In this document: positions 19,112 to 25,584 of the stretch, piece after piece
Layout: the number at the start of each line of letters is the position of its first letter
Numbering within the stretch: the stretch's first letter is position 1
Assembly (NCBI GenBank): GCA_048882505.1
Contig: JBHLRO010000005.1
Location: forward strand, 60,001-92,000
Direction of reading: 5' to 3'
Length of the DNA: 32,000 bases
DNA from: Candidatus Thorarchaeota archaeon
GTDB lineage: Archaea > Asgardarchaeota > Heimdallarchaeia > Hodarchaeales > Hodarchaeaceae
Translations under genes and position numbers: made by a program
The notes under the pieces: model-generated
What the model was told of the DNA's origin: nothing
Seen by the model: the letters and a program-made list of their open reading frames with translations, nothing else
The model's database searches: none

Positions 19112-20737
19112 TCAGAGCGTTTTTCTTCGTTTTCGTAAGGTTAGCAAGCCAATAATAAGAACACTTGCAATTATGAATGTCACTTGAGGAACAGGAGTAG
19201 TAGAAGACGTTATAGTTGTCGAGGAGGTTCCCATAGCTTCATGTTCTTCATCGACGTAAACATTCATCTGCCTAGGATCGGAATTGACCTGAAATCCACC
19301 CCTTTCAAGTTCTTCTTTGGTTAACCTAAACCAGACACCGAACGATTCTTCTGAAACGGTTTTTTCAGTATTCTCTGGATCCAGGGAACGCGTATCTTGA
19401 TATCCAATTTCAGATGAAGCTCTCATTAGGACGTTCTTTGCGGCCCAGTAATCAAGCGCTACTGGATCTTTGCCCGCTATAAGGATATTTACTCTCGTCG
19501 CAAGTTCAAATGCAGTAGAAGGGCCTTGGAATGAACTGGGGTAGGGATTAGCATTAATCCAAATTGCATCTATAATACTTAGAACGGGAAGTCCGCATTC
19601 CACCATTAGAGTTCCCAACCCTCCTGTCGCTACTGACCTATGACCGTTTGCTAAACCTCCAGTATTCGCTTCTCCTTCCGATTGAACTCCCATATAGTTT
19701 TTTAAAGCTCCTGTTACTCCATAAACGAAATGAGATTTCAGCACAGGGAGATTTATTGTTTTTAATCGAGTCTCGTAGGCATTTCCATTCCATATGCCAT
19801 GTTTCAAACTGATATTCGTACCAAACGATGTTTTGAACTTGGGATAAGAAACTTTAATTCCCGTTTCTGCGTCAGCGGTTTCATTTAGGTAATATCCGTC
19901 TATCGTGTCACCATCAGAGTACTCCTGAACCTGATGTCCTCTGATAGCCTGCCAGTCATAAGTCGAAACTCTATGGGTTACTGAATATAAATCTACGACA
20001 TCTTGGGCGGACTGAGAGCGGTTTTCTGCATTATTTTGAGTCCAATCTAAATTTCCACGACCTTGACCATTGTCGGCAACCACAATTTCTCCTGTGAATT
20101 CATCGGGGTGGTCAATAATTGCCTGTATAATTTCTTTCAAGAGATCAGTATTTGTACCCCCACGATATGGCCATTGTGCATTAATCTTCAGCACTACCAC
20201 ATCATTACTTGCAATTAGTCCATCTGGCCCTTGGTTCTCTTTTGTTTCAGAGGACTTGTAAAAAACGAGACCCTGAGAACCCATCAGGTTCACTAGACGA
20301 TCAATGTTTGCAGCCTTTCTGCCATTGACCACAAATATGTTTGATGCTGGGGGGATAGTCGCAGTTTGAGAATTCAGGGTTAATTGTATCTCCTGAAAAG
20401 GTTTAGGTTCTGCGGTCCTTAGAAATATTCCTCCACTGATTATTCCAATAAGAAGCATGGAGAGAATTATTGTACTATTCTTGGAAAAGAAATCCTTGAC
20501 CATCATGGCAAACGAGGTAGCTAGTGAGACTGGAGTAATAACAGATAGAGTAAACGAAAAATTCGATAAAGCCGTCCGTTGACAAGGGTAATTTATTCTT
20601 GTAGGTTTTAATCCTGTCCTAAAAATAAGCCAAAACAGGTTCATTAACCCGAACGCTATGAAATTTCTTCTTAGTGTTTGTTTCTTATCATTTTTTGGGA
20701 TAGAAAGAGGGAAAGGGGACTTCTTCCAAGAAGACAT
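19112..20737 (-). CDS. DUF362-domain protein with N-terminal membrane segments and C-terminal CTERM-like anchor
   Basis: FWLIFRTGLKPTRINYPCQ, VVLKINAQW, GEIVVADNGQG, INLPVLKSH, VTGALKNYMG, DPVALDYWA; tail S/T linker-TPVP-hydrophobic helix-RKRRK. Confidence 0.85.
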   Translation of the reverse strand: MSSWKKSPFPLSIPKNDKKQTLRRNFIAFGLMNLFWLIFRTGLKPTRINYPCQRTALSNFSFTLSVITPVSLATSFAMMVKDFFSKNSTIILSMLLIGIISGGIFLRTAEPKPFQEIQLTLNSQTATIPPASNIFVVNGRKAANIDRLVNLMGSQGLVFYKSSETKENQGPDGLIASNDVVVLKINAQWPYRGGTNTDLLKEIIQAIIDHPDEFTGEIVVADNGQGRGNLDWTQNNAENRSQSAQDVVDLYSVTHRVSTYDWQAIRGHQVQEYSDGDTIDGYYLNETADAETGIKVSYPKFKTSFGTNISLKHGIWNGNAYETRLKTINLPVLKSHFVYGVTGALKNYMGVQSEGEANTGGLANGHRSVATGGLGTLMVECGLPVLSIIDAIWINANPYPSSFQGPSTAFELATRVNILIAGKDPVALDYWAAKNVLMRASSEIGYQDTRSLDPENTEKTVSEESFGVWFRLTKEELERGGFQVNSDPRQMNVYVDEEHEAMGTSSTTITSSTTPVPQVTFIIASVLIIGLLTLRKRRKTL

Positions 20738-20910: not shown

Positions 20911-21800
20911 TCAAACAATGGAGAATTCTTTGATTAAGTTGGCTGTCATTTCTGGAATAACTGGATTCCCGACAACCAATGTGGCACCTCGTTGGCGAAG
21001 AAGATGAATTTTTGAACGAAGATTCTCTGATGTGAGGATATATTCTCGAATATGTCTCCTCAATACTTGTTGCTCAATTTCCTTGTAAGATTTCCCGTTA
21101 ACTTCACCTTGATCTCTCTTTAGTTCATTTAATGATTGTTGTACCAATTTGCGACGCAGTAAATAATTTTTAACCTTCTGAGTCTGTAGTACATCCGATT
21201 CACTTAATGTGTGGGCGATCGGGGAATATATTGCAATCTGATTTCCATTGCTGTCCCCCTCTCCGTTTCTTTTGTACACTCGGGCGTCACCGTGAAGATA
21301 GAACGGAATCACTCTTCCGAACTTATTTTGAATATTATCAATGAGAGAAGATGATAGATTTTCTGCGCCTAGGTATAATTCCGCGTCGAAATTTTGTCTA
21401 ACTTGTGTAAATATTTTGTAGAAGGCGTCTTGTAGCGGAATTCTTCTGTTTATCGTATCATAGGCGGGGTGCCCTGCCACAATGCAGAAGCCGAGATTCG
21501 AGAATACCTGGATCAGATTGAGGTATTCAAATAACCCGTTATCTGAGTAGAAGTACTCATCCCTTGCTGCAACGGTAAGCACCAAGGTGTTTTCCATGCT
21601 TTGAAGGATGCTCTTTAATTCTTCAGCAGATAGAAGGTTGTCTCGTCCCTCGTAATCTATGAAGACATACTGATGATGCCGGTCGGACAACTGAATCGCA
21701 CTTAAAAAACTTTCAAAAGAAGAGAAGTGTGTGCGTTTCAGCGCTATACCAGTGTGTTTTTTCGACTGGTCAGTTGAATAAGCCAGGAACTAAATCCCAC
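20911..21800 (-). CDS. Uncharacterised archaeal (beta/alpha)-barrel protein (recalled as DUF7388-like), with a -1 frameshift near its 5' end
   Basis: Motifs IDYEGR, VAGHPAY, IYSP...YLLRR, VVGNP match a haloarchaeal family as I recall it. The main frame stays open upstream of the tracked TTG (21690) through GIALK to a TAG at 21790-21792; the SD-preceded GTG at 21800 is in another frame. Confidence 0.6.
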
Positions 21801-21924: not shown

Positions 21925-23388
21925 CTACCATGGTTTCGAATTGCTGAAGTCATAGGTTTTACTGATCTCTATATTCCACTTAATTACCCCTTGTCTCATA
22001 TTGACTTTTGGGATATATCCATGATCGATCAATTGGATCCAAACACCATAAAAATCAACAAACCAAGAAGATGGAAACCAAAGTAGTCCCGCCAGTAAGG
22101 GCCTAGTATCGGTATCCATTTTGCTTTCATTATAAAACAGCCAGCTAAACGGGAAGAATTTTAAATGTTCTACGATGTTGTTAAGTAAGTTATAGTCATT
22201 ATTTCCTTCTGATCCAATCAAAGTGATCCAAACTTTCGAATCAAGCCCCATATGTCCAATCTGTAAAAACCGAGTTATCAATTCCGTTTCCATAAATAGC
22301 TCAAAATACTCTTGAACATATTTTGGGGTTATACCTAGGGTTTTACTAATATGTTTATTAGCTATTGCTTCTACTTGGAGAAGATCCAACATTTTTGCTT
22401 GAACTTTTGAGATCTTAAGCGCTGTCAGATCATTAAATAGGTTCTGTTCAATACCACTATCTTCTGAAAGGACTATATCGCTCCATTGTTCCCCAATAAA
22501 AATGGGGGGATAGATTTTCCAGCGATCAGCGGTGGAGGGTTTGAGTCCGCTCAAATTCCACCCTAGAAAGCTTTTGGTGAGCGCAATTTCATAGACAGGC
22601 CTATAAAATTCCCTTATGCTACTTAACAGTATTTTATTTGTAAAAGGAATTTGAAAAATCTTAATCTTTGCAACTTTCTTTCCCCAATCAATAGGAATAT
22701 CCGCCAAACAGAATGGTTTGAACGAAGGGGGGAGATTTTCAAACTTATCCTTGTGTATAATTGCGAAACTATTATAACCAAGCTTGGCCAGATCTACTCT
22801 GTATTTCTGAGTAAACATAGCCCTATTGGCCAAATAATTAATCCTACGCGAGATGGTGTTTTCGCTGCAGCGAATTAATCGAGCCAGCTGACGATTTGAT
22901 GGAAAAACAGGGATTTTATCCTTTATTAGTTGATTCGTCAACGTCGTAATGATTCTTACATCGTTTCTCAACAAAGGGAGGTTTAATACTCGCTGAATTT
23001 TATTGAGCGTAAAGAAGAATGAATTAGGGCTCCTTGCTTTTTTTAGTTGGTCTATAATGTCAGTTTCAGGTTGTAAGTTCAAGTAAATCAAAAACCGATG
23101 GGGAAGCAGAATCTTTGTACTGAGATATTCGAGCATAAATGAACGGTAATTTTGGTTATACTCGGAATTCCATGAAATAAGGTTTAAATCTGCCCATTTG
23201 CCGTAGAAAGGTTTTGTATAATCTTTATACAGCTTTTCGCATATCTTATTTATCTCGTTGGCATCTTTTGGAATGAAACGTTTTATGATCTCGAGGTAGT
23301 CAACGAGATCTTTGAAGAAGAGATCATATTCGATTTCACTACTTAAATCCTCTCTACTCTGTATGTAAAAAGGTTGCTGTTGAAACAT
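21925..23388 (-). CDS. Large regulator with two tandem Lrp/AsnC-like (wHTH + effector domain) units
   Basis: HTH1 SNRQLARLIRCSENTISRRINYL + linker VDLAKLGY; HTH2 ANKHISKTLGITPKYVQEYF + linker IGHMGL. Confidence 0.75.
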   Translation of the reverse strand: MFQQQPFYIQSREDLSSEIEYDLFFKDLVDYLEIIKRFIPKDANEINKICEKLYKDYTKPFYGKWADLNLISWNSEYNQNYRSFMLEYLSTKILLPHRFLIYLNLQPETDIIDQLKKARSPNSFFFTLNKIQRVLNLPLLRNDVRIITTLTNQLIKDKIPVFPSNRQLARLIRCSENTISRRINYLANRAMFTQKYRVDLAKLGYNSFAIIHKDKFENLPPSFKPFCLADIPIDWGKKVAKIKIFQIPFTNKILLSSIREFYRPVYEIALTKSFLGWNLSGLKPSTADRWKIYPPIFIGEQWSDIVLSEDSGIEQNLFNDLTALKISKVQAKMLDLLQVEAIANKHISKTLGITPKYVQEYFELFMETELITRFLQIGHMGLDSKVWITLIGSEGNNDYNLLNNIVEHLKFFPFSWLFYNESKMDTDTRPLLAGLLWFPSSWFVDFYGVWIQLIDHGYIPKVNMRQGVIKWNIEISKTYDFSNSKPW

Positions 23389-23490
23389 CAGCTAACCGCC
23401 GTACATTTTTGGCGAATCAAGTGCACTGCACTACAAGCAGGAGCATACAATTTAAAAGTTGTGATATCAAATAGAAGGGCCATCCAATTG

Positions 23491-23535
23491 TATCATGATA
23501 TGATTTCACTATTTTTTCGCGAAAAGCTGTGAAAT
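23491..23535. promoter_or_regulatory. Palindrome cluster in the divergent promoter (candidate operator)
   Basis: TATCATGATA (23491-23500), TTTTCGCGAAAA (23514-23525) flanked by ATTTCAC (23503-23509) and GTGAAAT (23529-23535). Confidence 0.45.
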
Positions 23536-23591
23536 GGTTTTCGTTACTACTTTTTCTATATAGCTTCAAGCGAGTAAGGGGAGGTGTTAAA

Positions 23592-23726
23592 TTGAACCTA
23601 AAACAATACTTTCCCAGCCGTCTTAGATTAATACAAGCTATACCGCTTTTAATCTGGATTACACTTCTTTTTATAAGCGTTGTAGCAAGTACAGCTCCTC
23701 CTGGAGACAATGCGGGTGGTGCCTAG
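23592..23726 (+). CDS. 44-aa signal-peptide-like micropeptide (putative secreted peptide precursor)
   Basis: Strong SD GGGGAGGTG (23578-23586) 5 nt before TTG; MNLKQYFPSRLRLIQAIPLLIWITLLFISVVASTAPPGDNAGGA. The ORF-track start at 23529 is less likely. Confidence 0.55.
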   Translation: MNLKQYFPSRLRLIQAIPLLIWITLLFISVVASTAPPGDNAGGA

Positions 23727-23761
23727 GATCCAGGGATCCCTCAGGATGTAGAACCAAAAAC

Positions 23762-24052
23762 ATGTGGAAACCAACTGAAATTTTCGAGGACGTAGGAATT
23801 CAACTCCTACTCCTTCCGATATTTTTATTTGAGGATTTTTCAGTTTTAGATGACTCCGTACAGTTAACTCTAAAAGCAGAATATCATCCGCCCTATATCA
23901 AACGTCTCCTCAGTCTAATATCTCTTGCGACAGGCCATTCATTCTACATGAAGAAGAAGCAGAACGAAGATATCTTACATTTGTATTGTTCTGATAATCC
24001 CAAATTGTTTAGGTTGCTTATCCAAAGCATGGGCAGAAGTGAAAAGATCTGA
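23762..24052 (+). CDS. Hypothetical 96-aa protein
   Basis: ATG ORF 35 bp after the micropeptide; no family recognised. Confidence 0.5.
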   Translation: MWKPTEIFEDVGIQLLLLPIFLFEDFSVLDDSVQLTLKAEYHPPYIKRLLSLISLATGHSFYMKKKQNEDILHLYCSDNPKLFRLLIQSMGRSEKI

Positions 24053-24201: not shown

Positions 24202-24645
24202 ATGATTCAAAACATCCTGTTAATTCACGAAACGGGCTTTGGATTAGTATCACGGTCATATGGGGACGATTCGAAGGATCTCGATCTATTTGGTGGATTG
24301 TTAGCCGCCATCTCAAGTTTTGCGGAAAACCTCATGGGAGATGCAATCAACGAAATTCGAATGGATCACCATAATATCTTCTATGAATCGGAACAGGGTG
24401 TGGTTTTGGCCATAATCACACCTAAGAGAACCATATCCAGACGAAAAATATCTGCAATAATGAGGAAGATTCACTCGAACTTTTTGGAAAGATATTCTGA
24501 ATATCTACGTCAAGATTTCTTAGAACCAAAAAACTTTGAGGAATTCTCATTTGAAATAGATAGCATTTTACGGAAGAATGGAGTTCTCGGGACAAAAAGT
24601 TCTCCTGTCAAGGAGAAAATTATTTCAACACTTAAACAAAAATAG
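24202..24645 (+). CDS. Longin-like domain protein (Asgard eukaryotic-signature type)
   Basis: MIQNILLIHETG...SRSY, DLFGGLLAAISSFAENL, INEIRM, IFYE, KIHSNFLERY; SD AAGGAG upstream. Confidence 0.8.
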   Translation: MIQNILLIHETGFGLVSRSYGDDSKDLDLFGGLLAAISSFAENLMGDAINEIRMDHHNIFYESEQGVVLAIITPKRTISRRKISAIMRKIHSNFLERYSEYLRQDFLEPKNFEEFSFEIDSILRKNGVLGTKSSPVKEKIISTLKQK

Positions 24646-24699
24646 GTGATAATAACTTAATAAAATAACTCCCAAAAAACGATATCGAGCTGTTGTAGC

Positions 24700-25584
24700 A
24701 TGAAAGGATTAGAAGGCGTTTGTTCGATGCCCGACCTTGGACAAATCGGGGACCAGCCTTTTAATCCGTATGCAATTGTTTCTCCACAAGATAATACGAT
24801 ACTCTTTTACTCTCAAGCATTCGCGCAGGTAAGCAAATTTCACCCCTCCACGGATCCCATATTTCGATCTGGGTTTCAAAAGACCCATCTCGAACTCAAA
24901 CAAACCAAGTTGAACGATTGTTATAATTTTCTGCAATGTTTAAACACTGTCTATCGATACAGAACCAGCTTGGTCGAGACGATAATACACGAGTTAAGGA
25001 CGGCAAGTCTGGCCATTAGTTTAGGAGCATACGCATTCGCCTTAGATGAACAAGTGGCACCCCTGATATTAGGTAGAATATTACAGGCATCGCACAGACA
25101 AAAAATTTCGACATTGATCGCCTCCGATATAATTCAATTGATTACTGCCCCTCCCATAACACATCCGACCTGCCTTACTAGAATTATTAAGGGAAGTCTT
25201 TCTCATTTTCCGCTTTTGCTTCAGATGAACTTTAGCTTGGGCTCAATGGTAAAAACAAATACCGTAGAACATGTTAATCCAGCCATTTGGGGGAATCCTG
25301 GATTTTTAGAACATTTTTTTGATACCATTTTTTCGTGGCTGGAAATGGAGGATGTTATGGTAGAGATGGAAATAGTTAACCCTGTTACCGTCAAGGTGTG
25401 CATTAGAATTCCACCAGATCAGTTCCTCCCGTCTATTCAAGGATTTCGCATGATATCTCATTATATTGAATATGTTATTGCTTATTTCAATGGACGTTCG
25501 TGGGTAGACCAGACTTCAATAAACATACTATTCCCTCTCTGTCAGAACTACTGGATGAACCGTCCTGATAAAAATAGTTCATGA
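24700..25584 (+). CDS. Degenerate histidine-kinase-like protein (PAS-like start, H-box, eroded HATPase domain)
   Basis: H-box IIHELRT (His at 24988-24990); N-terminal AIVSPQDNTILFYSQAF; C-terminal layout follows the GHKL fold but N/G1/G2 boxes are missing. Confidence 0.6.
   Translation: MKGLEGVCSMPDLGQIGDQPFNPYAIVSPQDNTILFYSQAFAQVSKFHPSTDPIFRSGFQKTHLELKQTKLNDCYNFLQCLNTVYRYRTSLVETIIHELRTASLAISLGAYAFALDEQVAPLILGRILQASHRQKISTLIASDIIQLITAPPITHPTCLTRIIKGSLSHFPLLLQMNFSLGSMVKTNTVEHVNPAIWGNPGFLEHFFDTIFSWLEMEDVMVEMEIVNPVTVKVCIRIPPDQFLPSIQGFRMISHYIEYVIAYFNGRSWVDQTSINILFPLCQNYWMNRPDKNSS

Follow-up and report, generated by a model that had tools for sequence, protein, structure and literature searches.

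Bacillota and their phages are known to communicate by means of peptides, in systems organised as cassettes of the RRNPP type (PlcR-PapR, Rap-Phr, NprR-NprX and AimR-AimP) and also in Rgg/SHP. In such systems the genes for pheromone precursors adjoin dedicated regulators. MgrB offers a second point of comparison: it is a 47 amino acid feedback inhibitor of PhoQ whose gene is controlled by its own system. A third is given by the Lrp/AsnC regulators, the RAM domains of which bind amino acids. Within the RRNPP group the number of receptor-peptide pairs can exceed 25 in some Paenibacillus species (PMC7425212). A full-text literature search returned no description of archaeal peptide-based communication, nor of the cassette presented below.

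The cassette lies within a window of 32,000 nucleotides (G000:C5:60001-92000) from a Hodarchaeales genome of 4.3 Mb that is 94.6% complete; positions are those of the window unless a contig is named. As in the RRNPP systems, a cytoplasmic DNA-binding regulator is encoded beside a gene of 40–50 codons, the product of which is mostly a predicted export signal followed by a short C-terminal peptide. The reading that we prefer, with a probability of roughly two in five, is that the tail of this micropeptide is cleaved off, released and acts as a signal under the control of the adjoining regulator.

The micropeptide gene and its neighbours

The micropeptide gene occupies positions 23592–23726 of the forward strand (44 codons and a stop codon), starting with TTG at 23592 and ending with TAG at 23724–23726, and it encodes a protein of 44 amino acids (P0001; window:23592-23723:+). 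The strong Shine-Dalgarno motif claimed in a sequence-only reading of this DNA is found as GGAGGTG at 23580–23586 (+), 5 nt before the start codon, and is the same in the ortholog from a sister species (G016). The ortholog is 80% identical and keeps the 44-codon frame, with ATG at the position where the focal gene has TTG, and the upstream AGGGGAGGTGTT is identical in the two genes. The 19 substitutions separating them comprise 10 synonymous and 9 non-synonymous changes (dN/dS 0.23). The frame is also conserved in other relatives: NCBI PGAP annotates orthologs of 44–51 amino acids in five of them, with the same starts and in every case as 'hypothetical protein'. The ORF is a genuine gene, and its start and frame are under purifying selection.

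Two further frames overlap this gene. An extended frame of 65 amino acids beginning with GTG at 23529 is noncoding, because its 21 in-frame upstream codons show no synonymous change relative to G016 among nine base changes counted from the codon listing; the GTG is also without a Shine-Dalgarno motif. An antisense ORF of 97 amino acids (23417–23710, reverse strand), overlapping the spacer and the greater part of the micropeptide gene, is closed in G016 and is probably spurious. At the 3′ end of the gene, two overlapping palindromes with GGATCC (CCTAGGATCCAGGGATCC) are seen at 23717–23741, on and after the stop codon and before the next gene; they are conserved only in part in G016.

The peptide is composed of three parts. 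The basic N-region, M1–R12 (23592–23627, +), carries K4, R10 and R12 and is predicted to be cytoplasmic. It leads into a hydrophobic segment, L13–A32, including Pro18 in the context I-P-L, which is followed by S33 (23628–23690, +). The C-terminal tail, TAPPGDNAGGA (T34–A44; 23691–23723, +), is predicted to be extracellular and is the candidate released peptide. When defined strictly, the hydrophobic core extends over the 17 residues A16–A32. The residues at the junction run in the order V31-A32-S33, T34-A35, P36-P37, with S33 at position −1 of the candidate cleavage junction V-A-S↓T-A. These features agree with the earlier description of a basic n-region (K4, R10, R12), a hydrophobic core of about 19 residues, for which the stretch L13–A32 is observed, and a small-residue site followed by PPGDNAGGA and the stop codon. 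In the comparison with G016 the tail differs by a single replacement, A41P (pN 0.04 versus pS 0.40).

A spacer of 203 bp separates the micropeptide gene from the divergent gene of the regulator (21925–23388, reverse strand). The spacer contains a dyad, ATTTCAC-N19-GTGAAAT (23503–23535), both arms of which are conserved in G016 and which is a candidate operator. Just downstream of the dyad is a TATA-like element, TTTTTCTATATA, at 23551–23562, which is likewise conserved in G016. As RNA, the spacer has no Rfam match and its predicted fold is not significant (z-score −0.97).

On the other side, 35 nt downstream of the micropeptide gene, a protein of 96 amino acids is encoded (23762–24052, +), which was modelled with AF2 as an alpha-beta-beta-alpha-beta-beta-alpha arrangement (pLDDT 87). 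Neither a significant fold match in the PDB, using Foldseek, nor a match in Pfam or NCBIfam was returned for this protein; a roadblock-like fold had been guessed from the order of its secondary structure elements and was unsupported by any search. Two co-oriented genes follow (24202–25584, +), coding for a 147 amino acid Longin-like protein, the Longin match being weak and below the Pfam cut-off, and for a 294 amino acid protein that has no match in Pfam or NCBIfam. Going by orientation alone, both may also belong to the transcription unit. The best explanation of the overall arrangement is that the micropeptide gene heads a small operon, divergent from its own tandem Lrp/AsnC-type regulator. 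Beyond the regulator, on its other side, lie genes for a DUF7388 protein (E 1.2e-14; 20911–21690, reverse strand) and for a 541 amino acid protein with DUF362 (19112–20737, reverse strand).

The tandem-Lrp regulator and the micropeptide family

The regulator is a single chain of 487 amino acids (about 480 in its homologues), in which a helical N-terminal extension of 135 amino acids precedes two Lrp/AsnC units, each with a winged helix-turn-helix (wHTH) and a RAM domain (AF2 pLDDT 86). A Foldseek search with the AF2 model gave the fused double-Lrp fold of NirDL as the top match (PDB code: 4ch7; E 1.5e-8), and the next matches were many Lrp/AsnC regulators with weaker scores (E from 3e-3, probability 0.9–1.0). 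Pfam returned HTH matches only, HTH_36 among them. A decarboxylase role for the protein is unlikely. Complex prediction of the regulator (A2) with the peptide (A3) gave a score of 0.00, which was weighed neither for nor against an interaction.

The micropeptide family was assembled starting from weak tblastn matches within the same genus that showed the same architecture. A profile HMM built from eight members matched in 17 of the 21 genomes of the genus, and in the rest of the class it gave only spurious matches within large proteins. The flanks of every regulator homologue were also scanned. Overall, 48 members of 43–56 amino acids were collected and aligned, with three more at a looser threshold. 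Five copies are present in the genome of the window: the focal gene on C5 and those at C6:58324-58476, C1:460400-460549, C13:12405-12554 and C14:68963-69172. When 5.8 billion proteins were searched with a profile, the matches were solely unnamed proteins from Hodarchaeales-type MAGs, and as far as searched the family is confined to Hodarchaeales. Pfam and NCBIfam contain no match for the micropeptide, and the ESM Atlas provided no usable neighbour.

The architecture seen in the focal peptide holds throughout the 48–51 homologues, with tails that differ between paralogs; this is the pattern of variable tail and conserved architecture that the sequence-only reading had proposed to look for in relatives, and it speaks for that reading. 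The N-region of the family is about 19 amino acids long, the focal copy having the shortest, with a recurrent M-x-[KR]-K-[LI]-R-x-R motif (MxKKLRxR). The hydrophobic segment opens with K-[LIM]-[LIV]-P-[LW] across the family, in which the Pro is conserved at 90% or more; the median length is 15 residues for the strict core and 20 for the uncharged run. The proposed V-A-S↓T-A site aligns with a family-wide S-x-G↓x-A junction. By inspection of the 48 members, position −1 is G, A, S or T in 46 and position +2 is A or G in 43, while position −3 is mostly S, T, A, V or I and Pro never occurs at +1. GGAGG- or GGTG-type motifs stand upstream of the start codons of most paralogs.

The tails consist of 11–17 residues rich in Pro, Gly and Ala and fall into two types. 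In one, to which the focal copy belongs, A-[DP]-P is followed by Pro runs, and in all 24 cassettes with such a tail a gene of about 100 codons, for an alpha/beta protein of cytoplasmic appearance, lies directly downstream, at a gap of 6–53 nt or with an overlap of at most 11 nt. In the other, which accounts for about half of the family, the tail is G/A-rich with an [IWFV]-[DE] ending and there is no same-strand gene within 400 nt downstream. The G/A-rich tails (for example L069, L073, L075, L080 and L083) nearly always end in ID, VD, WD, FD, FE or YE, and this ending of a hydrophobic or aromatic residue and Asp or Glu suggests a free C-terminus that is recognised by something.

Selection on the family was estimated from ortholog pairs. 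Nine comparable pairs have dN/dS values of 0.07–0.25, a further one consists of identical sequences, and 0.53 is obtained for L057/L050, which are more divergent. When the regulators are at least 70% identical, the tails have an identity of 0.63 versus 0.72–0.76 for the rest of the peptide, making the tail slightly more variable without being hypervariable. The tail is constrained among orthologs though paralogs differ.

Regulator and micropeptide are found together. There are eight regulator copies in the genome of the window and 11 in G020; a micropeptide gene adjoins 51 of the 63 regulator copies, the two genes being divergent in 46 of 48 pairs, and conversely the regulator is present at each of the 18 loci that the family HMM search recovered in the genus. 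Most regulator copies without a micropeptide lie at the end of a contig or in a cluster of regulators in tandem. Moreover, peptide identity drops in step with regulator identity. Nearly all family members have a paralog of this one regulator as their partner, and the two diverge in parallel.

Some regulator copies show other arrangements. In G002 a regulator 47% identical to that of the window (L042, G002:C109:9200-13700) has neither a micropeptide ORF nor the gene of about 100 codons on either side, which may represent a natural loss and so offer a point of comparison. Outside the window, at G000:C14:64000-77000, four double-Lrp paralogs of about 480 amino acids are grouped within 10 kb, and one of these alone (69403–70707) has a micropeptide gene (68963–69172, reverse strand). 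Comparable tandem clusters are present in G020 (C234 and C126) and G004 (C14).

Profiles of the regulator and of the protein of about 100 amino acids match in 21 of 21 and 16 of 21 genomes, respectively, of the family f1. Among 400 genomes of the phylum, one f2 genome alone is matched by the two profiles outside f1. A search of 1.84 billion representative proteins yielded only 54 clusters with E ≤1e-10, and for the 496 amino acid proteins of genus g5 the match is limited to residues 111–216, with no ORF for a tiny proline peptide in their vicinity. Six of the seven distant regulators that were looked up have a divergent small protein of exported type (49–84 amino acids) beside them, as opposed to one lacking an export segment; at the seventh, L151, no small export-tagged gene was identified. 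The distant cassettes retain the N-terminal export segment and have tails of 14–45 amino acids. In the 49 amino acid product of L149:2222-2371:- the tail, PAPPGDGTIGPQ, resembles APPGDNAGGA of the focal peptide. In four of the six, the gene of about 100 codons is present, followed by an Arf-like GTPase or a response regulator. These distant cassettes show that the module predates the genus and is tied to signal-transduction genes.

The loci concerned, L149, L152, L154 and L155, come from public MAGs and metagenomes and encode either an Arf-like small GTPase with a TrmB-type HTH protein or response regulators, the latter with a PAS/HisKA kinase nearby. The position of these genes corresponds to that of the 147 amino acid Longin-like and 294 amino acid proteins in the window.

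Proposed export and release, and alternative explanations

In the mechanism that we propose, the basic N-terminus would stay in the cytoplasm while the hydrophobic segment enters the membrane via Sec, so that the 11-residue Pro/Gly tail is displayed outside the cell. Type I signal peptidase would then cut at the S-x-G↓x-A junction, here V-A-S↓T-A, setting free a protease-resistant TAPPGDNAGGA or PPGDNAGGA. The freed peptide would be an extracellular signal specific to its cassette, with its production controlled by the regulator from the shared spacer. Sensing by the regulator could be direct, following uptake, or indirect, through the linked protein of about 100 amino acids and the GTPase or response-regulator genes. 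We know of no precedent for a peptide as the ligand of Lrp/AsnC RAM domains, and cleavage and the signalling role are the weakest steps of this explanation.

It is likely that the peptide is exported with its tail outside the cell. An N-in, C-out topology is predicted from the distribution of charge: in the family mean, the 19 residues of the N-region contain 5.7 K+R versus 1.5 D+E, giving it a net charge near +4, and basic residues are almost absent from the tail (K+R 0.2). A charged n-region, seen both in the focal copy (K4, R10, R12) and in the family mean, and a c-region in which, by inspection, positions −3 and −1 are small and +1 is never Pro are features of Sec class I signal peptides. 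SBP_bac_5 proteins of the same genome have signal peptides with h-regions of 13–18 residues and V-x-A sites, and the core length and the junction of the micropeptide fall within the range of these. The genome encodes an S26 signal peptidase (G000:C1:294963-295361) and eight Opp/Dpp-type binding proteins (SBP_bac_5), genes for which are common among peptide-using archaea.

Three other types of signal were considered and set aside. For Tat, the family has R-x-R (R10-L-R12 in the focal copy) 10–12 residues before the hydrophobic segment and lacks S/T-R-R-x-F-L-K. For a class III (prepilin-type) signal, the junction K-[LIM]-[LIV]-P-[LW] lacks G or A after K/R. A PGF-CTERM/archaeosortase substrate would show the reverse of the order seen here (basic, hydrophobic, Pro/Gly tail), and the micropeptide contains no other domain.

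The membrane micropeptide that had been offered as the alternative to a pheromone precursor is almost as likely as release of the tail. In this explanation, tentative as it is, all 44 residues would stay in the membrane as an uncleaved, signal-anchored protein with N-in, C-out topology and would act as a small modulator or sensor, the basic N-region for example tethering or modulating the protein of about 100 amino acids, the regulator or a membrane partner, much as MgrB and other small membrane proteins of bacteria work. MxKKLRxR is conserved and the Pro nearly invariant even in paralogs whose regulators share less than 25% identity, and the K-L-[LIV]-P-[LW] motif is likewise conserved across deep paralogs. 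This constraint on the N-region and the Pro exceeds that usual for a throw-away signal peptide. Pooled over 12 pairs, dN/dS amounts to 0.31 for the N-region and 0.27 for the hydrophobic segment versus 0.35 for the tail, such that the first two are at least as constrained. The uncharged run (median 20) is long enough for an uncleaved membrane anchor, and from the length of the ribosome tunnel, proteins of 44–56 residues would have to be inserted post-translationally, like tail-anchored proteins. The conserved N-region motif, the invariant Pro and the 20-residue uncharged stretch thus favour membrane retention, or else a functional signal-peptide remnant.

Set against this, the strict core, with a median of just 15 residues, runs into a conserved junction of small residues that resembles a c-region. 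Each genome has five to eleven paralogous pairs with paralog-specific tails that are constrained, which favours a released, cassette-specific peptide and is more easily explained by separate signalling channels than by modulators in the membrane. The longer extracytoplasmic tails of the distant relatives, reaching about 45 residues outside the membrane, point in the same direction. Of the pheromone-like peptide originally proposed, then, the architecture, the junction motif and the adjoining regulator stand; the N-region and the Pro are over-conserved for a disposable signal peptide.

It is improbable that the micropeptide is a membrane-damaging toxin, of type I or holin-like, which is silenced by the adjacent repressor as part of an addiction or defence module. 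A small, basic and hydrophobic single-helix peptide that is present several times in a genome, each time next to a regulator of its own, would fit such a role, and the multi-copy pattern of small hydrophobic peptides recalls the hok, ldr and ibs families. However, the paralogs are old, with regulators that are 22–30% identical, and they are vertically co-inherited within the genus; no mobile-element genes are seen among the listed neighbours. The constrained Pro/Gly tail, the linked protein of about 100 amino acids and the signalling genes are unlike known toxin modules, and searches for a conserved antisense frame, an Rfam family or a stable RNA fold found none.

Still less probable is an upstream ORF or leader peptide, for which the act of translation, rather than its product, would control the downstream 96 amino acid gene. 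The ORF is on the same strand, 35 nt before that gene, and its Pro-rich C-terminus could slow ribosomes. However, the half or so of the family with G/A-rich tails has no gene in the corresponding place, purifying selection extends over the whole peptide, N-region and hydrophobic segment included, and the spacer has no notable RNA structure. A chance ORF in an AT-rich spacer, which the short frame and TTG start might suggest, is refuted by conservation in the ortholog and paralogs, dN/dS well below 1, the conserved start and Shine-Dalgarno motif, and the strictly syntenic regulator.

Comparison with known systems

Hodarchaeales is the archaeal order closest to eukaryotes. The strongest form of the proposal is that the cassettes represent the first archaeal cell-to-cell signalling by peptides, with several Sec-processed, Pro-rich peptides of 9–16 residues each having its own tandem-Lrp sensor. 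We regard this form as rather unlikely. If true, the closest archaeal relatives of eukaryotes would own orthogonal peptide channels that are analogous to RRNPP and built from unrelated parts. The pairing of a multi-copy micropeptide with a regulator of ligand-binding type is a concrete hypothesis, testable with synthetic peptides. Even if the peptide is retained in the membrane, the analysis defines an undescribed micropeptide family, a new Lrp-type regulator architecture with an N-extension and two Lrp units, and a module of gene regulation associated with GTPase, longin and response-regulator genes of Asgard archaea. A further outcome is that these genes, with some 50 codons and either labelled hypothetical or missed in annotation, are shown to be real.

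The micropeptide resembles MgrB in size and in having a basic N-terminus, one hydrophobic helix and a short extracytoplasmic tail. As for MgrB, control of the gene by its own system is suggested here, from the divergent promoter. The two proteins have no sequence similarity, however, and the Hodarchaeales peptides differ from MgrB in being multi-copy with paralog-specific tails, in their c-region-like small-residue junction and in having as partner an Lrp-type regulator, not a two-component system.

The partner itself folds as two wHTH + RAM units, like NirDL/AhbAB and the Lrp/AsnC (feast/famine) regulators. Unlike these, it has an N-extension of 135 residues, is a single chain of about 480 amino acids, occurs in 8–11 copies per genome and is accompanied by an exported-type micropeptide. 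To our knowledge, neither the N-extension, the doubling within a single chain, the expansion nor the pairing with a micropeptide has a counterpart among Lrp proteins.

The cassette shares with RRNPP systems the small adjacent gene for a predicted exported propeptide, at 51 of 63 regulator copies, the presence in each genome of many paralogous pairs with a distinct peptide in each, and the encoding of oligopeptide-binding proteins in the genome. It is not a member of that group, because the defining TPR receptor is missing: the AF2 model and the Foldseek matches show a tandem Lrp/AsnC protein (wHTH + RAM) in its place. The Hodarchaeales cassettes differ further in their host, an Asgard archaeon, in the long N-region of the peptide with its conserved sequence, and in a third gene of about 100 codons that belongs to the unit, often together with GTPase or response-regulator genes.
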